A stretch of DNA of 32,000 nt from Candidatus Brocadia sp. (GCA_021650915.1 CP091279.1:3780001-3812000), one strand, 5' to 3'. Counted from the first letter of the stretch, positions 3,280-30,651 are shown. Numbers and translations are program-made. Notes: generated by a model not told the origin, from the letters alone.

Positions 3280-4062
3280 ATGCAAAAGAATGAAATACTC
3301 AGCGATTTATCGCGCTATAGAGAAGAATTTATCCTGGGCCACAGCAATACCGCGTGCCTGCTTATCCATGGGTTTGGTTGTGGACCAATTCAGATGCGGG
3401 AACTTGCGGAAAAGTTATCTCAGTGGGGCTTTACCGCCCGGGGCATACTCCTTCCGGGGCATTGCAAAAATATGGGTGGTTATTCATCAACCGCACATCA
3501 CGACTGGATTGCAAAGGTAGAGTCTGAATATCATCAGTTAAAGAGGGTATACCGGGAGGTCGTTGTTATCGGGTTCTCCCTCGGTGCGCTCCTGACCTTG
3601 CAATTGTCTATCCGCTATTCCCCGGAAAAAATAATCCTCATGGGCACCCCCCTGTATTTACTCCGGAAGTATCTGCCGGTGCCTTTGGCAATCAGGATAT
3701 GCAAGAATTTTATGAAAAAGGTAAAAACCCGGCAGAGGCGGTGTTATATGGAATCGGAAGGATATACCGGTTACCTGCGCCAGCCTGTCGATACCCATTT
3801 TTCAATCCCCGCTTTATACGGGCTTACCGAGATCATGAACGTCGTCAATACCGGATTGCAGGAGGTACGGTCGCCCGCGCTGGTTATCCATTCCAAAAAA
3901 GACCTTCTTGCTGCCCCCGCAAGCGCACAACACGTGATGAGACATCTTGGCTCCGACTACAAACGGCTGGTCTGGCTTGAACGAAGTCATCACCTGGTAA
4001 TGTACGACAAGGAAAAGGATAGGGTTTTTCGGGCAATAAAAGAATTTGTAACGGATGCCTGA
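3280..4062 (+). CDS. Alpha/beta hydrolase (carboxylesterase / lysophospholipase / monoacylglycerol-lipase-like)
   Basis: HGFGCGP oxyanion region, GFSLGA nucleophile elbow (GxSxG) and a C-terminal H. ATG 3280 (MQKNEILSD) lies just after the previous stop at 3257. Confidence 0.7.
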   Translation: MQKNEILSDLSRYREEFILGHSNTACLLIHGFGCGPIQMRELAEKLSQWGFTARGILLPGHCKNMGGYSSTAHHDWIAKVESEYHQLKRVYREVVVIGFSLGALLTLQLSIRYSPEKIILMGTPLYLLRKYLPVPLAIRICKNFMKKVKTRQRRCYMESEGYTGYLRQPVDTHFSIPALYGLTEIMNVVNTGLQEVRSPALVIHSKKDLLAAPASAQHVMRHLGSDYKRLVWLERSHHLVMYDKEKDRVFRAIKEFVTDA

Positions 4063-4080
4063 CCCGACCGCATCAGGCAT
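4055..4080. terminator. 8-bp stem-loop between convergent genes (weak bidirectional terminator candidate)
   Basis: ATGCCTGA (4055..4062), a 10-nt loop, then TCAGGCAT (4073..4080). It overlaps the hydrolase stop codon. There is no clear T-tract. Confidence 0.25.
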
Positions 4081-4091
4081 GGCTGCCATGT

Positions 4092-5078
4092 TCAGGTGAT
4101 CTCAAACTCCGCGATGACGGGGGCATGATCCGACTCCGGAAATTTCACGTCCTGCCGGAATGCGCCTGATTCGTCCGGTAATGCCTCATTGTGAATCTCA
4201 GCGTTCCGGAAGAATCTCAGCAATGGCCTTGAAACGATGATGTGATCCAGCATTTCACCCTTTCCCAGGTGCAGTAGTGAAAACCGGGAGGATTCAGGAA
4301 TATTCTTTTCGCAGGGTATCATGATGCGGGGCGCGTGTTCCGAATTTCCCGTTTCCTCAACGGGTCCGCAAATCGCCTGTACCGGCACTTCGTCTGCCCC
4401 GGCATTAAAATCACCGCACAGGGCAATCAGGGTGTCTTCTCCCTGCTGATCGAAGATGTCATCGATCAGCAGCCTTGCCTGCAATGCCTGTCCTACGCGC
4501 TTCATGGACGAGATGAAACTTCCTTCTGCCCATGCCGACACCGTTTTCCAGGTGGAGTTGTCAAGCTTTTGTCCCGGAATGCTGGAAGCAAGTTTGGATT
4601 TAAGATGTACATTAATCAGATGCAGATTCATTCCGGTAGCGACCCTGATTTGGGTGTAGAGCATGGGACGTTCCCATTCGATGGGATTTGCTAATGTGTC
4701 CGGTGGGTTAGCCGTAGCCATTTGGTATTGTGGGCGCGGCCCGGAGCTATCCCGAATGATCTGGGCAGGTGCTGCAAATGAAAATCGTGACAGGGTAACG
4801 ATATTGCGCACATCATAGAGTGCACCGCTGGTGGTCGACGTTGTTTCACGATGAAATCCGGCATACTCGGTGCCGGCAAGAAGGTCATCTAAAGCCGCAA
4901 GGGTGCGGGAATCGCTGGCGCCCTGGCTGTTAACTTCCTGAAAGCAAAGAATATCTGCGCGCAGCCGCTGCAGCTGTGGCCGCATGATCCGGATTCGGTC
5001 AGCCAGTGCGGGCACAACGTTGGGACCCTTGTCCAGGTTTTCCAGGTTATAGGTGGCGATACGAAGAAACATTGGCAA
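4092..5078 (-). CDS. Endonuclease/exonuclease/phosphatase (EEP) family protein
   Basis: The N-terminus RIATYNLENLD, ILCFQEVN, a central NVHLKS and C-terminal SDHAPV are typical EEP motifs. A strong SD (AAGGAGGG) sits upstream. Confidence 0.75.
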   Translation of the reverse strand: MPMFLRIATYNLENLDKGPNVVPALADRIRIMRPQLQRLRADILCFQEVNSQGASDSRTLAALDDLLAGTEYAGFHRETTSTTSGALYDVRNIVTLSRFSFAAPAQIIRDSSGPRPQYQMATANPPDTLANPIEWERPMLYTQIRVATGMNLHLINVHLKSKLASSIPGQKLDNSTWKTVSAWAEGSFISSMKRVGQALQARLLIDDIFDQQGEDTLIALCGDFNAGADEVPVQAICGPVEETGNSEHAPRIMIPCEKNIPESSRFSLLHLGKGEMLDHIIVSRPLLRFFRNAEIHNEALPDESGAFRQDVKFPESDHAPVIAEFEIT

Positions 5079-5531
5079 CCCTCCTTGTCATAGAGAACGG
5101 TTTGGAGTCAGCGCAACGATTAGGAGTTGAGAAAGGGGCACGATCCGGTTACCGGTAAGAAAGCCCTTGTCTGGAAAAATACTGCGCAGACTGCAAACTA
5201 TCAAAAATAAAAGACCTCTCTGTGATTCGACTTCACGACGCTGGCGTGTTTGAATCTCATGGTTATAGATACGCTTATAACAAATATGTTAACAGGGAAT
5301 TCATGCTAATATCAAGACGAATAACTTCTCAGTCCTGTTCATGAAGTGGCGTCACACCCGGCTTGGCAAGCCGTTATCTCCCAGATTGCTGTTGAGACAC
5401 GGATTTAAATAGCGGTTTCATCAATTCTTCAAACGGTCGTATTTCTTGTTCAACCGGAACGAAAATGCTCGTATCGCTTCTGCCAGAGTCGTCCTGTTTT
5501 TTTCAGCGCTACGCTTGCAGCCAGTTTTTTC

Positions 5532-22848: not shown

Positions 22849-23082
22849 TTATGAACCACACCCGGTACATGAAGAAGCGGTGCAACTTCCGCAACCGCCG
22901 GAACCACTGCCGGAAGCGGCGTCTCCACCGCCTTTCACCGACATTCCAAACACAGAAAATATCTTTTGGACATTTTCACTCTGGCAGGACGGACAAAACA
23001 ACTTTTTCCGTTCTGAAGCACTCCGAAAATATTCGTCAAATTTCGTATTGCACTGGCTGCATTGAAAATCATATATTGGCAT
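22849..23082 (-). CDS. FmdB-family zinc-ribbon protein
   Basis: MPIYDFQCSQCNTKFD...FCPSCQSENVQKIFS with a Gly/Ser/Cys-rich tail. ATG 23082 has GGAG 8 nt upstream. Confidence 0.8.
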   Translation of the reverse strand: MPIYDFQCSQCNTKFDEYFRSASERKKLFCPSCQSENVQKIFSVFGMSVKGGGDAASGSGSGGCGSCTASSCTGCGS

Positions 23083-23288
23083 GGCGAACACTCCGGCACC
23101 GATAAAACTTCATCGGTTTCCCAAATAAAACTGAGGAAAATGTAACGCACTGAAAGATAATACGGATTGTTAGCGGGGCATCGTCCATTTCCACGGTGCC
23201 TATTTTGTGGGTCATAATTGATGCTCCTGACAATCTGATTCTCCTTATTTCCCAGGAATTATCTCACGACGTTGTTGTCTTCTGAGCG

Positions 23289-24074
23289 TCATGGTAAATA
23301 ATTTTTGGGATTCACCGGTTTATCTTTTACGTAAATTTTAAAAGTAATCCCTTGTGATTTATCAGCATTCGCTGAATCAACATCTGCAATCGGCTGTCCG
23401 CGCTCCACGTAACTGCCTTCTCCCACTGCCGGGCAGCCACAAGATTCATAGATAGTGCGTATTCCATCATCATGTTTAATCACAATAACTGACATGCCGT
23501 CTCCTGCATTAGAAATTGCCTCGACGGTGCCCTTCTTTGCGGCAACAACTTTTTGTCCTGCCTCAGGCAATATATGGATACCGGAACTTTTAGCTCCATT
23601 TCTCACTTCGCCGAATGGTGACACGATGCGCCCTTTTACGGGCCATATAAAACCCCGGGACGACACACTGCCCGCAGTGTCTTTTATGGACACATAGCTT
23701 GAGCGGGAGGACAATGGAGATGATGTCTGCGATTTCCCGGAAACGGGGATAATAAGCTTCTGACCCACCTTCAGGTCTTTTGTATTCGTGGCATGGTTCG
23801 CCCCGCGAATTGCGTTCACAGATACCCCGTAATTTTTTGATATGCGCCATAGGGTATCCCCTTTCTTTACCACATAATATGTCGCCTTCTCGCTTTGAAT
23901 CGGCGGTTGATACGTTTTTCTGGATTGCTGGTCTTCAAGGGACTTCATTTCACTCTTCAAAGGCGCTGGTGTCTCTGTCTTCTTCGGTTGCACGGCACAA
24001 CCACCTCCGGAGATCAAGAGGAAAATAACAGAGCTGGCTTTTATCATAAAATGTATTGGAAAATTCTTTTTCAT
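23289..24074 (-). CDS. LysM + LytM(M23)-domain lipoprotein, NlpD-like, with a degenerate catalytic site
   Basis: Lipobox LISGGGC, LysM (YYVVKKGDTLWRISKNYGVSVNAI...GQKLIIP) and an M23 fold (GIHILPEAGQKVVAAKKGTV...VIKHDDGIRTIYES). The HxxxD and HxH metal motifs are missing. Confidence 0.8.
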   Translation of the reverse strand: MKKNFPIHFMIKASSVIFLLISGGGCAVQPKKTETPAPLKSEMKSLEDQQSRKTYQPPIQSEKATYYVVKKGDTLWRISKNYGVSVNAIRGANHATNTKDLKVGQKLIIPVSGKSQTSSPLSSRSSYVSIKDTAGSVSSRGFIWPVKGRIVSPFGEVRNGAKSSGIHILPEAGQKVVAAKKGTVEAISNAGDGMSVIVIKHDDGIRTIYESCGCPAVGEGSYVERGQPIADVDSANADKSQGITFKIYVKDKPVNPKNYLP

Positions 24075-24312
24075 ACCACTCTGGGATGATGCTCCTCTGA
24101 TAAACCTGATCAGTATTCTCCGCGATTGACTGCAATTTTATCAGCACCTATGAGCAAATTCAAGCGAGAATCGTTCAAGGCTTGCGCCAACATCTTTGCT
24201 CTCTGTTTTTCGGGAGATTGTTTTACTGTCTGGAAGTATCCTGTTGGTTTTGTATTCTTTGCCGGTACTTCGCCAGTAAAGACAAGGGCTTTCATGACAA
24301 TCAGTGAGTCTT

Positions 24313-24350
24313 CATAAAACGAAAAAGGCAACTCACCGGAGTTGCCTTTT
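24313..24350 (-). terminator. Intrinsic terminator after peptide gene copy 2
   Basis: 12-bp stem AAAAGGCAACTC / GAGTTGCCTTTT (24323..24350), followed on the minus strand by TCGTTTTAT. Confidence 0.7.
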
Positions 24351-24398
24351 CGCATATCTTTTCACACCTTGCCAAATAGTTACATCTGGCTTACTGCA

Positions 24399-24575
24399 TT
24401 AGTGTTTGTGATGGCATTCACACTTGCAATCTTTGCCCTCTTTTGCGGTGTGTCCGCATTTGTCGCACTTTGCTTCGCTTGCGATAACCGTGCCAACCAA
24501 TGCTGAACTTGCTGCGCCAACACCAACTACCAATGCACCAACAACCAACAGGCTATAACCAAACTTCTTCAACAT
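24399..24575 (-). CDS. 58-aa membrane-anchored/secreted Cys/His-rich peptide, copy 2
   Basis: MLKKFGYSLLVVGALVVGVGAASSALVGTVIASEAKCDKCGHTAKEGKDCKCECHHKH. SD AAGGAGGAGGAGGAA lies directly before the ATG, and a terminator follows 48 nt downstream. Confidence 0.65.
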   Translation of the reverse strand: MLKKFGYSLLVVGALVVGVGAASSALVGTVIASEAKCDKCGHTAKEGKDCKCECHHKH

Positions 24576-24763
24576 TTCCTCCTCCTCCTTAAGATAGAGA
24601 AACTTGAGACAAGCCATTGAGAACACTCTCAAAATATTCGGTTTGCCTCTTCGTAATATAATATGTTACATACCCGACATAATTGCAATAAAATTATTAC
24701 TCTCTCCTTGAAAATGATGTATGTTTTTGCATACACCCACAAACTATTTAACAGCGATGCCAT

Positions 24764-24828
24764 TCACACATTAAGCTCAACAAAATCAACATGTTGCCCG
24801 TCGTAGACGTCTAATCCTTTTTCCCCTG
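24764..24828 (-). pseudogene. Dead copy of the last ~65 nt of the DUF362 gene created by the tandem duplication
   Basis: Encodes ...LDVYDGQHVDFVELNV*, compared with ...LGVYDRQNIDFIELSV* at the 3' end of 25446..26510. Homology ends abruptly at the duplication junction 24828/24829. Confidence 0.8.
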
Positions 24829-24995
24829 ACCTATGAGCAAATTCAAGTGAGAATCGTTCAAAGCTTGCGCCAACACCCTTGCTCTCTGTTTTTTGGGGGA
24901 TTGCTTTGCTGCCCGGAAATCTCCTGTTGGTTTTGTATTTTTTGCCAGTACTTCGCAAATGAAGACAAGGGCTTTCATAGCAATCAGTGAGTCTT

Positions 24996-25033
24996 CATAA
25001 AACGAAAAAGGCAACTCGCCTGAGTTGCCTTTT
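24996..25033 (-). terminator. Intrinsic terminator after peptide gene copy 1
   Basis: Stem AAAGGCAACTC / GAGTTGCCTTT (25007..25032), followed on the minus strand by TTCGTTTTAT. Confidence 0.7.
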
Positions 25034-25082
25034 CGCATATTTTTTTCACACCGTGCCAAATAGTTACATCTGGCTTACTGCA

Positions 25083-25259
25083 TTAGTGTTTGTGATGGCA
25101 TTCACACTTGCAATCTTTGCCCTCTGTTGCGGTGTGTCCGCATTTGTCGCACTTTGCTTCATTTGCGATAACCGTGCCAACCAATGCTGAACTTACTGCA
25201 CCAACACCAACTACCAACGCACCAACAACCAACAGACTATAACCAAACTTCTTCAACAT
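25083..25259 (-). CDS. 58-aa membrane-anchored/secreted Cys/His-rich peptide, copy 1
   Basis: MLKKFGYSLLVVGALVVGVGAVSSALVGTVIANEAKCDKCGHTATEGKDCKCECHHKH. SD AAGGAGGAGAAGGAA precedes the ATG and a terminator follows. Confidence 0.65.
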   Translation of the reverse strand: MLKKFGYSLLVVGALVVGVGAVSSALVGTVIANEAKCDKCGHTATEGKDCKCECHHKH

Positions 25260-25445
25260 TTCCTTCTCCTCCTTAAGATAGAGAACCTGAGGCAAGCCAT
25301 TGAGAACACTCTCAAGATATTCGGTTTGCCTCTTCGTAGTATAACATGTTCCATACCCGGTATAATTGCAACAAAATTATTAATCCCTCGTTGAAAATGA
25401 TAGATGTTTTGCATACGCTCACAAACGATTTAGCAACGATGCCAT

Positions 25446-26510
25446 TCATACACTAAGTTCAATAAAATCGATATTTTGTCTGTCATAGACACCCAATCCT
25501 TTTTTTCCTGCGGTGGCGATATGTTTTGCTTTTTGAAATACTGATGGGTAGTTGTTTTCCTTGCGTTTTCTATCAATGATTTCAAGACCTATCCGGTCAA
25601 TGGCTACGGGGTCCGTTCCCAAAAAAAGTCGTTCCTCATTCCAGATCGTCCATGTCTTCATACTGGCGGGGCCTCCATCAAAACAGGCCTGCAATGCATC
25701 AACGATGTGCAAACGTACTTTTTCTCTGAGCGCCGGATGCGCACAGACTTCTGCTGAAGCCGGATCGCAGAAGTAAGGTGACGGATGAAATCTGGGGGTA
25801 TTATTAACGGCGCCGAATGCCAGATTTTTAAGACATAAAGTTACACCTGCAATTCCATGGTCCTTCATAACCGGCACGTTAATGATGGCGCTAACGTGTT
25901 GAGTGACGATTGTGCTAAAGAGTGACCGCGCCCCATCATCCTGACGCAGGGAGAAGTCGTCATCGAGCGATTCATAATAGGTCTTTTTGTCATATCCGGC
26001 AGTTGGTTCCGTGCCATAGCAGCGAACCCCACTATTCCCCTGATTTAAAGGGAAGCCTGCAGTAATCAGATGGTAGCTAAAACGGTCCCAGATAATGATA
26101 TTATTCTCCTTAACCCCTGCTGCGATGAGGCTGCGGATGATAGCATTGACAACCTCAGGCCGTGTGGAAAGTTTTATACCGCCGATTGGATTTATCTTTA
26201 TCCCAACAACATCTTCCGGTGTGAAAAATGTTTTCCATGCATCAGCAATGGTTCTTTTCCCGGTGAGAGCAAACATCCCTTCATTCATCATCCGTTGTAC
26301 ATTTTCTGCTTCAGGTTTTCCGGCGCTTATAATTCCGCTGCTTTTAACCCCAACTACGGTGCTTTTTTTGCCGGCGGAAGACGGTATATCCGACCCAATC
26401 GCCCATTGCAAACCTTCAAACCCCCCAATGCCTGCCCCTAATCCGGCAATACCAAAAGCTGAATGTTTTAAGAAATTTCTGCGGGAAAGGTCGTTGTTTT
26501 TTGTATCCAT
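25446..26510 (-). CDS. Tat-signal DUF362-like protein of unknown function
   Basis: Twin-arginine signal LSRRNFLKHSAFGIAGLGAG. The body resembles DUF362 (IKINPIGG...; VMKDHGIAGVTLCLKNL; GTDPVAIDRIG). ATG 26510 has SD GGAGAAACGG. Confidence 0.7.
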   Translation of the reverse strand: MDTKNNDLSRRNFLKHSAFGIAGLGAGIGGFEGLQWAIGSDIPSSAGKKSTVVGVKSSGIISAGKPEAENVQRMMNEGMFALTGKRTIADAWKTFFTPEDVVGIKINPIGGIKLSTRPEVVNAIIRSLIAAGVKENNIIIWDRFSYHLITAGFPLNQGNSGVRCYGTEPTAGYDKKTYYESLDDDFSLRQDDGARSLFSTIVTQHVSAIINVPVMKDHGIAGVTLCLKNLAFGAVNNTPRFHPSPYFCDPASAEVCAHPALREKVRLHIVDALQACFDGGPASMKTWTIWNEERLFLGTDPVAIDRIGLEIIDRKRKENNYPSVFQKAKHIATAGKKGLGVYDRQNIDFIELSV

Positions 26511-27089
26511 TACCGTTTCTCCTAAATATGAACCCATCAGGATTGTACATTGATCTTAGCTTGAAAAATTTTTTTTCAAACGAGGTATTTTGCCATTCAA
26601 TACTGTTGTGAACGCCTGAGGAGCCGATTGTATCTTTGTCTTGTATGCCGATCATTGAATTACGAGGAGGAGCAATTTTTATAATTGACAAATGGTTTTT
26701 CTCTGATATTGTCTTTGATATTTAGCATAAGAATATTTACCCAGCGAATGGATTGAAAAGTATCATTTGTTTATTGTATACTACGTTTGCTGGTTCTTAA
26801 AACAAAAAACTTTTCCAATTTGGCTGAGGTAGGATTATAACCAGCCCTCTTCCCGGCAGGTCAATTTCACCGTTCTGCAATCCTTTCCGTGATAATGCAG
26901 AGCAATGGGGAGATTCTGCGGCTGTGAGTGCGGATACAAAAGGACATTGAAGGACGCAGATCGTCAGGGGAAAGATCGACAAATCCATGGTCTAAGGCAG
27001 TTGCATTCGTGAAACCGGGTTCTCAGGAGCGTCAAACTTCAACAACAAGGAAACGTGAACTCCTGCCTCTTTATTGATAATATTCCTTT

Positions 27090-27770
27090 ATGAAGGCGAT
27101 AATATTTGATATGGACGGCGTACTTGTCGATTCTATGTCCTATCACGCAGAGGCATGGGATATTGTGCTGAAAACAGCGGGAATCAGCATTGACAAGAAA
27201 ATTATCTATGAGCTTGAAGGCGCAAATTGCCGACAGGTAATTGATATCATCCTGCGGCAACATAACCAAATACCAACGGAAACAGAGATACGAGACCTTG
27301 GTCGCAAGAAAATGGAAGTTTTTGAACTGATAGAACGTGTGAGACCCTTTGACGGTATGCCAGAGCTCCTTGAAACGCTTAAACTAAAATATCAACTTGC
27401 CGTTGTCTCCGGTTCTAATAAAAAGACCGTACAGACAACGCTGAATACCTTTTTCCCCGACACTTTTAAGGTTATTGTTGATGGAGAAGAAACCAGGATA
27501 GGCAAACCGTCGCCAGAGCCGTATTTGCGGGCTATAGAAAAACTTGGTATTCCAAAGAACCACTGCCTCGTCATCGAGAACGCCCCCCTCGGGATACGAT
27601 CAGCGAAAGGCGCCGGCTTGCGATGTATAGCCATTACTACCTATCTCAGCAGAGAATTCCTGAAAGAAGCCGATTTCATTGTTGATGACCACCGCGAATT
27701 AAGAAAGTATCTTGAAAGAGAAGCAGAACGGGAAAATGACAAAGGATACAACCACGTAAATACGCCATAG
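27090..27770 (+). CDS. HAD-superfamily phosphatase (beta-phosphoglucomutase-like subfamily)
   Basis: Motif I FDMDGVLVDS, motif II VVSGS, motif III K..P.PYL and motif IV ENAPLGIRSAKGAG. Confidence 0.85.
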   Translation: MKAIIFDMDGVLVDSMSYHAEAWDIVLKTAGISIDKKIIYELEGANCRQVIDIILRQHNQIPTETEIRDLGRKKMEVFELIERVRPFDGMPELLETLKLKYQLAVVSGSNKKTVQTTLNTFFPDTFKVIVDGEETRIGKPSPEPYLRAIEKLGIPKNHCLVIENAPLGIRSAKGAGLRCIAITTYLSREFLKEADFIVDDHRELRKYLEREAERENDKGYNHVNTP

Positions 27771-28047
27771 ATGGAGGTTATAAGATCAAAAGATTTTCCA
27801 TCTTTTTGTTTTTTTCTTCGGTGTTAACCCCTCCCATATGCTTCTTGCATTCACCCACCGTATGTGCTAAACTTTTTCGCATAAATTTCTTTTTTACGAT
27901 TTTTCTGCGAAAACAGGCATCCTTTCCACCCGCTGCCGATGAAATGGGTCATCCTGAACTCCTTGGAACAGAATTGGAACCGGAGGATTGTGTGATAAAG
28001 GCGCCCGTTTTTTCCTCGCTCTATTACCTGTACAGAGGATTGAAACG

Positions 28048-30651
28048 ATGTTTATAAAGGACACGAGTTTTGATTCCAAAAGGATAGACGATCACTATAT
28101 CATCGAGGCATATATCCCCGAAGAATATAATCTGGAAATTTCTGGCGAAGGCCTTCAACTGGCAAGCCGAAACGAATTACGACATCCTGTTGGGGTTGTT
28201 GCAGCCAGATCATTGCGGTATTTCAGCATCAATGGAGAAGATTTTAATATCTTTCGTATACGAGACATGGTTGTCTGGCGGCTCAGGCACATCTATAACA
28301 GCTTCAGCTGGTGGAATGCCTACGTGGTAAACGCAGAGGGGGAACGGAAATATTTGCCCATGCTATATATCGGGGAAAAATTTGGTACCGTAACAGGGAA
28401 TGTGGATGAAGCTGATATTGTGCCAAGCGCATTTGAAAACGACCGGTGTATTGTCAATGAAGGATGTGAGGGTGGGGCGATTTTTGCCGTTGGTTACAGT
28501 GAAAGGGGCGGATTGTTTAACGCCCCCGATATGTATGGGGCCAAGACGATTGTCGGGAACAAGTATAAAGGTGCTGGTGTCAGTGTAATCCATGGCATTA
28601 CCAAGAATCTCAGACTTATGGCAGAACACACGCTGAGGGCCAAAGGCAGTGAGATTACTCCCGGGAACATTCATGATGAAATCAAAGAGATGAAAATTGT
28701 TATTCTGGACAGACCAAGGCATGCAAAACTCATTAAGACAATAAAAGAACTTGGCGCCCAATTGATTCTTGTGAAGGATGACGATCTGACGCCCACCTTT
28801 GCGACAGCAAGAAAGGAGATAGATCTGATCACGGGTGTGGGCGGAATTCCTGAAGCCATCCTGAGTGCAATTATTATTGAAAAATTGGGTGGAGAGATGA
28901 GCTTAAGGATATTGCCGGCTGACGTGGCGCAGGACGAAAAATTATCAGGAAAACTGAGTAACTGGGACCTCTTCAGGAAGAACGAAATAGATATTTTAAA
29001 GAATTTTAAAATTGTAAAACCCGGCACAGAGAAAACGGGCGAAAAAGCCTGGGATACCGTGTGGATCTCGAAGGATTTAGCCAGCGGCATGGATATGGTG
29101 TTTACGGCCTGTGTCATTAAAAGAACTCCGTGGATAAGATTCCCCGATGGGAAAGACGTCCCGGGAGTAAAGCTGGATCCTGAAACTGGGAAAGTAACCG
29201 TCCATGTTGTTCGTATTGCCAATGAAACTTTTGAAATTATCCCCATCATTTATACAACAGCGATTAGTGAATGTATTAAGCGCTACTCTGCTATGGAGGT
29301 AGTCCACGAAGGAATTGATGGTGACTTACTTATTCAATTGGGAGAGTCGTATGCAGAGTTTGGCATGTTTCAAAAAGCAAAGGAATGCATCCAAAAGGCA
29401 AGGATATTGAAAAACTCCCCTGAGCATTTTGTTCAGAAATGTGATTCCCTGTACGAGTATATTGAAGGGTTAGATGATCTTACAAGCAAACCTATTCAAA
29501 CCCCGGAAGCTTTGATAGAACATTTCAAAAAGGTATGTCGTTTGGGACGAAGAGATGATATATGGTTGAAATCCAAGATCATGATTAAGAGATTTTTTGA
29601 GTACCTCGGGGACAAAAATTATCATGACCGTCATTACGAGGCGGCTCTTGCCTGTTACCGGGAGGCGTTGCAATACAGCCCCCAGCTGAATCTCTACCGC
29701 AAGGTCAATTCTATTCAAATGAAGGATATCCTGGAAAAATATTTTCATCTGACCGACAAAATATACAAAGAATATCATTACAAGGAATCAAGGGATCTGG
29801 AAAAATACAAACTCGAAATTGCGTTGAAGGTCTTTTATCAAAGCGAGGGGCAGGTAAAATCATCGTGCAGGGAACCATGGCTAATCTTCTTTCGGAGAAC
29901 GGTATTGCATGGGAAAAGGCCTTCGTACAAACTGGTCATTCTCATCAGGTTATTGAGATTATACAAGAAGTTAAATAGAGCCCGTGAAGACGAGATTTCT
30001 CTCTTCCTGAAAAGAGAATTTAAGATGACCGAGGATGAAATAGCGTGCATCCTTCGTTACAAGAACGAGCAGAAACGATTTCATTCTGTGGGTGAACTGT
30101 ATCGTGTGTCGGGATTGAGTCTGGAAGGCTTGTCGAAATTACTTCTCCCGCAGGTGACCATTGAGAGCCAAAATGAACTGGAAGATGCCGATATTCCCCT
30201 GAGCATCAGTCTTGTTGAGGTAATGGAAAAGCGGTATAAGAACATGCTGGATGAACTGAAAGAGGGATACCGGAAGGAGGCGCAGGAACATTCGTATGCG
30301 ATGGCAGAGGCGTATCACTACGTAGGTCTGGCGCTCTACGATATTGGCGATGACGAGGGGGTAAAAATATATTATGAAAAGGCGCTGGTAAAATTTCAGG
30401 AGATTATAGAGAAGTTTGAGGGGATAACACCGGTTCACGCCCAGTATCGTATCGGCAATCTTTTCGAGGAATTAGCCTTGCTCTACGAGAAAGAGCAGGA
30501 AGAATACAACAAAAAGGCGATAGATGCCTACACGCGTATTATCGATGAGCAGCAATCGGCAAGATTATTTGGCGCTATACGCGAGTTGGTTTCAGTCAAA
30601 ATAGACCAGGCCAGGGAAAGGGTGGAATACCTGAAAAGAGAATGGTTTTAG
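28048..30651 (+). CDS. GlpX-like (class II FBPase fold) domain fused to a ~430-aa TPR-like helical domain
   Basis: PMLYIGEKFGT, FNAPDMY, ILDRPRH, KDDD and GVGGIPEA are collinear with my recalled E. coli GlpX. The C-terminal half has TPR-like repeats (YAEFGMFQKAKECIQKA; HYEAALACYREALQYSP; YHYVGLALYDIGDDEGVKIYYEKAL). ATG 28048 has GAGGA upstream. Confidence 0.7.
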   Translation: MFIKDTSFDSKRIDDHYIIEAYIPEEYNLEISGEGLQLASRNELRHPVGVVAARSLRYFSINGEDFNIFRIRDMVVWRLRHIYNSFSWWNAYVVNAEGERKYLPMLYIGEKFGTVTGNVDEADIVPSAFENDRCIVNEGCEGGAIFAVGYSERGGLFNAPDMYGAKTIVGNKYKGAGVSVIHGITKNLRLMAEHTLRAKGSEITPGNIHDEIKEMKIVILDRPRHAKLIKTIKELGAQLILVKDDDLTPTFATARKEIDLITGVGGIPEAILSAIIIEKLGGEMSLRILPADVAQDEKLSGKLSNWDLFRKNEIDILKNFKIVKPGTEKTGEKAWDTVWISKDLASGMDMVFTACVIKRTPWIRFPDGKDVPGVKLDPETGKVTVHVVRIANETFEIIPIIYTTAISECIKRYSAMEVVHEGIDGDLLIQLGESYAEFGMFQKAKECIQKARILKNSPEHFVQKCDSLYEYIEGLDDLTSKPIQTPEALIEHFKKVCRLGRRDDIWLKSKIMIKRFFEYLGDKNYHDRHYEAALACYREALQYSPQLNLYRKVNSIQMKDILEKYFHLTDKIYKEYHYKESRDLEKYKLEIALKVFYQSEGQVKSSCREPWLIFFRRTVLHGKRPSYKLVILIRLLRLYKKLNRAREDEISLFLKREFKMTEDEIACILRYKNEQKRFHSVGELYRVSGLSLEGLSKLLLPQVTIESQNELEDADIPLSISLVEVMEKRYKNMLDELKEGYRKEAQEHSYAMAEAYHYVGLALYDIGDDEGVKIYYEKALVKFQEIIEKFEGITPVHAQYRIGNLFEELALLYEKEQEEYNKKAIDAYTRIIDEQQSARLFGAIRELVSVKIDQARERVEYLKREWF

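Follow-up and report, generated by a model that had tools for sequence, protein, structure and literature searches.

Two nearly identical small open reading frames (ORFs) of 58 codons follow a DUF362 gene on the minus strand of a 32,000-nucleotide stretch of Candidatus Brocadia sp. DNA (GCA_021650915.1, CP091279.1:3780001-3812000; hereafter the window), which raises the question of what they encode and whether they work with that neighbour. A first-pass annotation, whose placement of the three genes is confirmed here, had described them as genes for membrane-anchored Cys/His-rich peptides that partner the DUF362 protein, exported by the twin-arginine translocation (Tat) pathway, in a periplasmic metal-handling or redox module. 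The balance of our evidence tips towards another reading: the two ORFs are paralogues that arose when a free-standing Brocadiaceae gene was duplicated in tandem (683 bp) in one lineage, and this gene appears to encode a secreted mini-metallothionein/zinc-knuckle-like peptide.

Both ORFs lie within a head-to-tail duplication with a period of 682-684 bp, recovered by a repeat search (families D1-D4; Table 1). Because the duplicated unit starts 65 nt inside the 3' end of the DUF362 gene, the distal copy (B) is preceded by a relic of that gene. Pairwise alignment of the coding sequences of copies A and B gives 96.0% identity, with 7 of 177 nt and three residues changed (V22A, N33S, T45K) and every Cys and His kept, exactly as counted by hand in the first-pass annotation. 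The terminator segments of the two units are 94.6% identical, and identity falls to 88.3% in the upstream intergenic segments and 86.1% downstream. Between the copies, synonymous divergence (dS) is 0.11, close to the divergence of the flanks, and the ratio of nonsynonymous to synonymous divergence (dN/dS, Nei-Gojobori) is 0.20. The earlier proposal that both copies are maintained is supported. Since three independent assemblies, 99.3% identical to the window, hold both copies (L165, JGI; L166, GCA_002050315, UTAMX2; L167, GCA_009612775), the duplication is not an assembly artefact. Among the loci compared, only the fulgida/UTAMX2 lineage shows it; syntenic relatives have a single copy. The exact sequences of both peptides are already deposited as hypothetical proteins, peptide A as BROFUL_02020 and L3J18_16925, and peptide B as BROFUL_02021, B6D35_13840 and L3J18_16920 (BROFUL_ tags designate Candidatus Brocadia fulgida and B6D35_13840 belongs to Brocadia sp. 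UTAMX2). Two further ORFs (81/82 codons; 24110-24355 and 24811-25059, minus strand), with starts within the terminator sequences, were rejected as coding, with about 12 replacements between their translations in a segment with 19 nt differences; the stretch that they overlap is probably the upstream region of a LysM/M23 gene.

The small ORFs are real genes under purifying selection. Against orthologues, dN/dS ranges from 0.08 to 0.26, and 12 Brocadia-clade loci share exactly the same 23-residue tail KCDKCGHTAKEGKDCKCECHHKH despite a dS of up to ~1, all replacements falling in the N-terminal segment. The same comparison identifies T45 of copy A as derived and K45 of copy B as ancestral. Invariant positions across the family are M1, L2, L15, A32, E34, C37, K39, C40, C50 and C52, while C54 and H55 are nearly so. 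A protein search returned 34 homologues, all named ones coming from Brocadia or from unclassified Planctomycetes metagenome-assembled genomes. When each GTDB species was represented by one genome, a scan detected 30 loci in Brocadia, Brocadiaceae and related groundwater lineages including Ca. Subterrananammoxibius, and no locus of the peptide family in Kuenenia, Jettenia or Scalindua. In a HMMER scan of 1.84 billion representatives, 43 cluster representatives matched, most of them sharing only the N-terminus. As far as these searches reach, the Cys-peptide family is restricted to Brocadiaceae.

Each gene of the family is preceded by the same ordered cassette of a palindrome, a promoter, a leader hairpin, a pyrimidine tract and a Shine-Dalgarno (SD) sequence, which can be aligned across upstream regions from unrelated genomic contexts. 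The promoter consists of TTG(C/A)AA, a 17-nt spacer and a TANNNT-like -10 hexamer and is thus sigma70-like. For the element proposed earlier, TTGCAA-N17-CATATT, the position is conserved in 17 distinct upstream regions, although the score stays under the threshold of a generic promoter scan. In groundwater Brocadiaceae, arrays of family genes directly follow the genes for an NtrC-type sigma54 response regulator and its kinase. A sigma54 promoter, suggested by these adjoining regulators, was rejected, as no GG-N10-GC lies upstream and the conserved hexamers fit sigma70. The palindrome (consensus TGTATGC-N4-GCATACA, 18 bp, 7-4-7) was found in 21 loci, a single time in each and in every case upstream of a family gene. 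In 17 distinct promoters, 27-29 nt separate its end from the -35 hexamer; its centre therefore falls near -73, where activator sites are typically located. When up to three mismatches and no gap are allowed, only the palindrome of copy B matches the consensus in the window. A metagenome-contig scan with TGTATGNAAAANCATACA for a wider palindrome regulon yielded at least 120 loci; among the matches listed none held a family gene or the hairpin, and they were for that reason judged to be chance matches.

The leader hairpin is a structured RNA. It spans 38-45 nt in the family (44 nt in the window), would start ~3 nt after the putative transcription start site, and is built of a helix P1 of 5-7 bp, a 1x1 or 0x1 internal loop, a helix P1b of 3 bp, a 5' bulge of 0-7 nt (often RGUAUK), an inner helix P2 of 6-7 bp and a G-N-G-U loop. 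In P2, 96.5% of the alignment cells are paired and five of the six pairs show compensatory changes, with a covariation score reached by none of 500 shuffles and well above all slid controls. All 27 members fold into an extended hairpin (mean z = -3.5). The outer stem is only 56% paired in the covariance model (CM) alignment, because the length and register of the 5' bulge differ between subfamilies and the CM captures this part poorly; its support was hence taken from the folds of individual sequences and from an arm-swap test, in which pairing of the outer stem drops from 8.5 to 6.2 pairs once members exchange their 5' arms. Conservation of the loop and closing pairs at the sequence level suggests that the hairpin is recognised by a protein. 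A CM search gave 39 matches at E<=1, the confident ones lying directly upstream of family genes, as was also the case with nhmmer, and a cmscan of positions 23000-27500 on both strands (E<=1) found no Rfam family. Downstream of the hairpin, folding predicts base pairing between a pyrimidine tract ((G)UUUCC/UUCUCU) and the SD, which reads AGGAGGAGAAGGAA in the family. Both the very strong SD and the intrinsic terminator ascribed earlier to each small ORF are borne out. At one locus (L027, 4884-4924 and 4930-4970; 36.9 and 42.2 bits), two tandem leader hairpins stand ahead of a single family gene.

The two copies of the window differ in this respect. Copy B keeps all the cassette elements of its single-copy relatives, while copy A combines a degenerate palindrome and a weaker -10 hexamer (CATGTT) with the derived T45. 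With its palindrome degenerate and its -10 hexamer weakened, copy A is probably no longer regulated in the same way as copy B, and it may depend on read-through from the DUF362 gene.

Where the peptide would act depends on its N-terminal segment, for which the first-pass annotation preferred a membrane anchor. This segment comprises MLKK, 17 hydrophobic residues and the stretch N/S-x-x-x-V-G-T-V-I-A, followed after the predicted cleavage site by N/S-E, with 32 residues up to the site. All 36 Cys-unit sequences have Ala at -1 (A32), and its conservation across 24 paralogue N-termini is at least 90%; A, V, S or I is found at -3, G, S, P or N at -4/-5 and usually acidic residues at +1/+2, even though the mature parts of these paralogues are unlike. 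With a positive n-region, a hydrophobic h-region and small residues at -3 and -1, the segment has the features of a Sec-type signal peptide for signal peptidase I. In view of the conserved -1 Ala and -3/-4/-5 pattern across paralogues, a cleaved signal is quite probable and an anchor less so. If the segment remained uncleaved, the products would be small single-pass proteins (N-in, C-out) displaying a metal-binding or charged tail, with a Gly/Val/Ala-rich helix that docks into a membrane complex or defines a membrane domain, as accessory subunits or in Mms6-type biomineralisation. Mms6 likewise joins a Gly-rich hydrophobic N-terminus to a charged C-terminus. In line with this idea, the N-terminal residues are unusually conserved (M1, L2, K3, F5, Y7, S8, V11, G13, A14, L15 and V22) and common to paralogues with different tails, and residues 2-33 form one continuous helix in the AlphaFold2 (AF2) model. 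We nevertheless hold it to be doubtful, since the canonical signal-peptidase site is kept family-wide (A at -1, A/V/S/I at -3, helix breakers from -4 to -6, acidic residues at +1/+2), a polar N-T breaks the hydrophobic stretch, and a soluble folded YHS domain is found among the passengers, along with a weak PepSY-like match.

These passengers show that the leader and the N-terminus are not confined to Cys peptides. Most of the 43 HMMER matches share the N-terminus MLKKFGxxLxVxGALMFGVGxVNTxxVGSxxA, and the passenger behind it is one Cys unit, a tandem array of 2-5 such units, a YHS domain (P0053; Pfam E=2.6e-15), a PepSY-like domain (a weak match, under the Pfam cut-off) or a low-complexity charged tail. 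In Jettenia, the N-terminal module is present with a KE-rich tail and no Cys unit was found with it. The leader hairpin also precedes paralogues with (EEKK)n...KH tails (L021, L024, L030, L033), acidic EDK-rich repeats (L001 3735, L016 2663) and a YHS domain (L171). Family genes occur in arrays of two or three (L021, L024 and L030 at ~4730-5170; L033 at 4700-5434; L029 at 3300-5168; three copies each in L029 and L033), and in several arrays an (EEKK)n...KH paralogue stands directly before a Cys-unit gene, each with its own leader hairpin. At L003 (6240-6441; also in L002, L004 and L032), a second family copy lies directly downstream with its signal peptide and its Cys unit (EKKCEKCGHLPSERAKNDCKYDCQ) in different frames; it is probably a pseudogene, a programmed frameshift being less likely. 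A broader and more speculative reading, which strikes us as distinctly doubtful, is that the hairpin and the near-invariant signal form a cassette for expression and export that is peculiar to Brocadiaceae. A dedicated protein or ligand would read the RNA and so control translation or stability, and the signal would sort a set of mini-proteins (the Cys4 mini-metallothionein, its tandem forms, the YHS protein and the polyampholyte (EEKK)n or acidic-repeat proteins) to one compartment, possibly the anammoxosome, where they would manage the supply of Fe, Cu or Zn for metalloproteins.

For the Cys peptide itself, a role as an exported metal ligand seems the most plausible. Its tail holds 5 Cys in 26 residues, with CxxC and CxCxC motifs, and follows the pattern C-x2-C-x9-C-x-C-x-C-H-H-x-H, as correctly read in the first-pass annotation. 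A metal site is suggested by the CxxCG knuckle and the Lys-Cys alternation, as in metallothioneins, by conservation that is specific to Cys while spacers vary and the unit is repeated in tandem, and by the putative metal-binding YHS domain that a sister paralogue carries behind the same leader and signal. In the tandem relatives (P0037, P0040, P0046 and P0076), the core C-E-K-C-G-H-x8-10-C-x(1,3)-C recurs with conserved Cys and variable spacers. A link to heavy-metal efflux was considered and dropped, since the RND pump beside P0040 scores best as multidrug MdtB/C and not as CusA/CzcA.

The favoured mechanism would run as follows. Each copy would act as a complete monocistronic unit, with a transcription factor presumably binding the palindrome ~29 nt upstream of -35. 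The leader of ~77 nt would begin almost at once with the hairpin, which, together with the anti-SD tract, may control stability or translation. The N-terminal 32 residues would serve as a Sec-type signal, most likely cut by signal peptidase I after Ala32, and the remaining 26 residues, rich in Lys, Cys and His, would enter the extracytoplasmic space, either the periplasm or perhaps the anammoxosome. In that compartment, C37, C40, C50 and C52, together with C54 and H55, could chelate a metal ion or a small cluster, so that the peptide would work as a buffer or chaperone.

Several points weigh against this proposal. The literature yielded no transcript, protein or metal-binding record for the family, and the peptides gave no significant match to metallothionein, zinc-ribbon or any other Pfam, NCBIfam or PDB family. 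The AF2 model (36-sequence alignment, predicted local distance difference test (pLDDT) 66) shows one helix and an unstructured tail and is uninformative. The ligand set is not fixed, as D or N stands in place of H42 in P0015, P0021, P0029, P0030 and P0034 and the second Cys cluster varies between CxCxC and Cx3C. Thiolate ligation outside the cytoplasm needs a reducing compartment. Other paralogues carry purely charged tails without obvious metal ligands. Finally, the N-terminal segment is long (32 residues) and more conserved than ordinary signal peptides; it may be an uncleaved N-in/C-out anchor or have a specific sorting function.

The same Cys and His residues could alternatively build a redox centre, namely a rubredoxin/desulforedoxin-like Fe(Cys)4 site, an Fe-S or Rieske-like (CxH...CxCH) cluster, or a thiol/disulfide relay in extracytoplasmic electron transfer or detoxification of reactive nitrogen. 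Anammox cells possess a very large extracytoplasmic redox proteome, the CxxCG knuckle is found in rubredoxins, and CGH and CECH may be likened to the Rieske boxes CxH and CxCH. We still judge a redox role improbable. H42 is not conserved, the second box varies (CxCxC, Cx3CxxH or CxCPCQ), and the 9-10 residues between the boxes are far fewer than in Rieske or rubredoxin folds; the Rieske reading in particular was discarded because the His/Cys spacings are not conserved in the family. Moreover, Sec export delivers an unfolded apo-peptide, and we know of no cluster-assembly route outside the cytoplasm. Binding of haem c was likewise rejected: the peptide contains no CXXCH, and although CKCECH can be read as CX3CH, relatives have CxCPCQ or Cx3CxxH and thus do not keep Cys next to His.

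How far does the DUF362 gene belong to the system? The ORF spans 25446..26537, the likely start being the ATG at 26510 with AGGAGA in front. Its product matches PF04015 over profile positions 1-199 of 200 (E=2.9e-18; 67.1 bits, cut-off 24) and the TIGR01409 TAT_signal_seq model (22.8 bits against a cut-off of 16.7). It carries SRRNFLK at residues 9-15, with R10, R11 and F13 at least 90% conserved among 38 homologues, and thus has the features of a Tat substrate, as predicted in the first-pass annotation. In a Foldseek comparison of its AF2 model (pLDDT 82) with the PDB, the top nine places all go to LarA, malate racemase or LarA-like structures (E = 6e-6 to 6e-4, template modelling score ~0.4, identity ~13-15%). 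This predicted fold agrees with the Pfam clan CL0471, which unites DUF362 with the LarA superfamily/DUF2088 (PMC11770544); the Pfam scan of the protein gave no match to the DUF2088 hidden Markov model. An exported LarA-fold protein would be unusual, and DUF362 is uncharacterised. The protein is 99% identical to B6D35_13830 of Brocadia sp. UTAMX2, its orthologues in Jettenia and Kuenenia are 66-80% identical and more distant relatives in Poribacteria and others 40-47%, and more than 1000 homologues (E<=1e-20) extend far beyond the taxa that carry the peptide.

A dedicated periplasmic metal or redox module of DUF362 and peptide, in which the peptide might for instance deliver or buffer nickel for a LarA-like cofactor, would be in keeping with the nickel-pincer cofactor of characterised LarA enzymes (PMC11770544), with the LarA-like predicted fold, with the predicted export of both partners and with the lack of a detected terminator between the DUF362 gene and peptide gene A. 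The adjacency is also kept at the orthologous locus in at least six Brocadia species or assemblies (L018-L020, L022, L023, L165-L167). Across the family, however, a tblastn search with the DUF362 protein of the window placed it near the peptide in only 6 of 41 loci. Five of these six are one orthologous locus with a single peptide copy each (L018 of B. pituitae, L019, L020, L022 and L023), where DUF362, peptide and LysM/M23 genes are adjacent and an upstream HAD gene was detected in three of the five; at the sixth, L014, ~2.8 kb separate the two genes. Adjacency is confined to one orthologous locus of a Brocadia subclade. Peptide genes occupy at least six unrelated classes of genomic context, with AIR-synthase-like, Band_7, RecQ, FGE-sulfatase/PfkB, sigma70-family factor or ABC transporter genes as other neighbours and, in one groundwater lineage, sigma54-type two-component systems. 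No peptide gene and no leader hairpin was found within 3 kb of the DUF362 orthologues of Jettenia and Kuenenia. Genomes with a DUF362-linked copy hold further paralogues elsewhere, as in WS118 and B. carolinensis (L019 and L020 versus L035 and L036) and in the 4.05-Mb fulgida-like genome, where a third Cys paralogue (P0266) lies at another site. Besides, the peptide gene has its own conserved promoter and putative operator. The adjacency being local synteny and most loci having no DUF362, the proposed partnership is unsupported; it is largely refuted by synteny, and we regard it as very improbable. The DUF362 gene is best described as an unrelated, more widely conserved gene for a predicted Tat-exported LarA-fold protein, a neighbour only.

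It is hardly credible that the peptide is a secreted bioactive compound (a Sec-dependent bacteriocin or signal) or a type I toxin whose leader hairpin is targeted by an antisense RNA: the small hydrophobic-plus-charged product, the structured 5' untranslated region, the unfixed genomic context and the multi-copy arrays (L029, L033) would fit, tandem duplication being common at toxin and bacteriocin loci, but such products normally diversify whereas the soluble mature tail is nearly invariant across Brocadia at dS ~1, the neighbourhood lacks any recurrent immunity, transporter or maturase gene, the net charge is about neutral, an AxA site is present, a folded YHS domain stands behind the same N-terminus in a paralogue, and the covarying hairpin lies on the sense strand, directly ahead of a strong SD. 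A ribosomally synthesised and post-translationally modified peptide (RiPP) precursor was also rejected, as clustering of neighbouring ORFs at 35 loci revealed no enzyme common across context classes and the N-terminus is Sec-like rather than a RiPP leader.

Table 1. Features of the duplicated locus, with positions counted from the first nucleotide of the window
Feature	Position	Strand	Basis or remark
Tat-signal DUF362 protein, 354 aa, LarA-like predicted fold	25446..26510	-	PF04015, TIGR01409, AF2/Foldseek
Duplication unit A, DUF362-proximal	24829..25510	-	3'-terminal 65 nt of DUF362, intergenic region, peptide gene A, terminator and ~175 nt downstream
Degenerate palindrome of copy A, CGTATGC-AAAA-CATCTA	25401..25417	-	1-nt deletion and mutated 3' half-site (unit alignment)
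Promoter A (putative)	25343..25371	-	-35 TTGCAA 25366-25371, 17-nt spacer, -10 CATGTT 25343-25348; position conserved in family
Leader hairpin A: P1, P1b, 6-nt 5' bulge, P2, GUGU loop	25289..25332	-	cmsearch 47.5 bits, E=2e-11; minimum free energy (MFE) fold; covariation
Shine-Dalgarno region A, AAGGAGGAGAAGGAA	25260..25274	-	conserved in alignment; predicted pairing with preceding UUCUC(U) tract
Peptide gene A, 58 aa	25083..25259	-	predicted signal 1-32; predicted mature peptide NEAKCDKCGHTATEGKDCKCECHHKH; T45 derived
Intrinsic terminator A	25005..25034	-	13-bp stem and T-run
Duplication unit B, distal	24146..24828	-	repeat search and segment identities; in three independent assemblies
Decayed relic of DUF362 3' end (...GEKGLDVYDGQHVDFVELNV*)	24764..24828	-	76.9% identical to 25446-25510; duplication junction
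Intact palindrome TGTATGCAAAAACATACA, candidate transcription-factor site	24718..24735	-	sole exact match in window; 29 nt upstream of copy B -35
Promoter B (putative)	24660..24688	-	-35 TTGCAA 24683-24688, 17-nt spacer, -10 CATATT 24660-24665
Leader hairpin B	24606..24649	-	cmsearch 47.3 bits, E=2.4e-11; MFE folds
Peptide gene B, 58 aa	24399..24575	-	predicted mature peptide SEAKCDKCGHTAKEGKDCKCECHHKH; ancestral K45
Intrinsic terminator B	24322..24351	-	terminator scan

Two other genes of the window deserve mention. On the plus strand, an 887-aa ORF (27988-30651) joins a GlpX-type class II fructose-1,6-bisphosphatase domain (residues ~110-378) to ~500 residues with TPR repeats, an unusual fusion that is conserved beside the HAD gene in relatives. 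On the minus strand, 22849-23091 encodes an FmdB-type zinc-ribbon protein (Pfam Zn_ribbon_8) with a Gly/Ser/Cys-rich C-terminal tail (...GGGDAASGSGSGGCGSCTASSCTGCGS).

The family, its leader RNA and its palindrome are undescribed. All deposited copies are labelled hypothetical. Neither Pfam, NCBIfam and Rfam nor the literature has a record of them; in particular, nothing relevant was published, as far as searched, on the peptide motif, on BROFUL_02020/21, KKO19264/5, GAN34194 or B6D35_13840, or on metallothioneins and cysteine-rich peptides of anammox bacteria. The earlier statement that the tail is no characterised family thus stands. Anammox bacteria carry an exceptional load of extracytoplasmic haem and metal proteins, and metal buffering outside the cytoplasm is poorly known. 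The peptide, constrained, Brocadiaceae-specific and present in several copies per genome, is a candidate for such buffering or delivery. In a group that, to our knowledge, is not genetically manipulable, the hairpin and the fixed-phase palindrome are candidate new regulatory elements, and the shared N-terminal module may bear on protein sorting in anammox cells. For annotation, the adjacency to DUF362 should not be carried forward as a functional link.

Among known systems, small metallothioneins (fungal Cu-metallothioneins of ~25 aa, BmtA/SmtA of PF02069) resemble the predicted mature peptide in being short and Lys/Cys-rich, with CxC/CxxC motifs, His co-ligands and a plausible buffering role, and relatives of the peptide also vary in Cys number (5-7) and repeat their unit in tandem. 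The peptides differ in their 4-5 Cys per unit and in being made as preproteins with a predicted signal, hence presumably extracytoplasmic, when known metallothioneins are cytosolic; neither they nor their multi-repeat relatives match a metallothionein family (e.g. PF02069) in Pfam or NCBIfam. With zinc-ribbon and rubredoxin knuckles they share the first half-site KCDKCG (CxxCG) and four Cys in two pairs, but the second half-site is CKCEC (CxCxC) or Cx3C instead of CxxC, the spacer counts 9-10 residues, the peptide is predicted to be exported, and the best matches are not significant (RPA12, E=0.059 in PDB; zn-ribbon_14, E=0.04 in Pfam). Like the periplasmic metal-binding stress proteins of the ZraP/CpxP and CusF/CopM types, the peptides would be small, signal-bearing, extracytoplasmic metal binders with a promoter of their own, and the pairing of zraP with zraSR recalls the sigma54-type two-component systems beside peptide genes in the one groundwater lineage; the peptide is, however, much smaller, shows no homology to them and has no sigma54 promoter (GG-N10-GC) upstream. 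The neighbour compares with the LarA superfamily through its predicted fold and Pfam clan, although it is predicted to be Tat-exported and characterised LarA is cytoplasmic. As a whole, the family is reminiscent of conotoxin superfamilies and of the variable lipoproteins of Mycoplasma and Borrelia, in which a conserved leader or signal precedes unlike mature parts (here the Cys unit, YHS, weak PepSY-like, (EEKK)n and acidic passengers). The phase or antigenic variation of those lipoproteins has no evidence in the Brocadiaceae family and, in contrast to both groups, the mature part of the Cys-peptide subfamily is its most conserved portion and not its most variable one.

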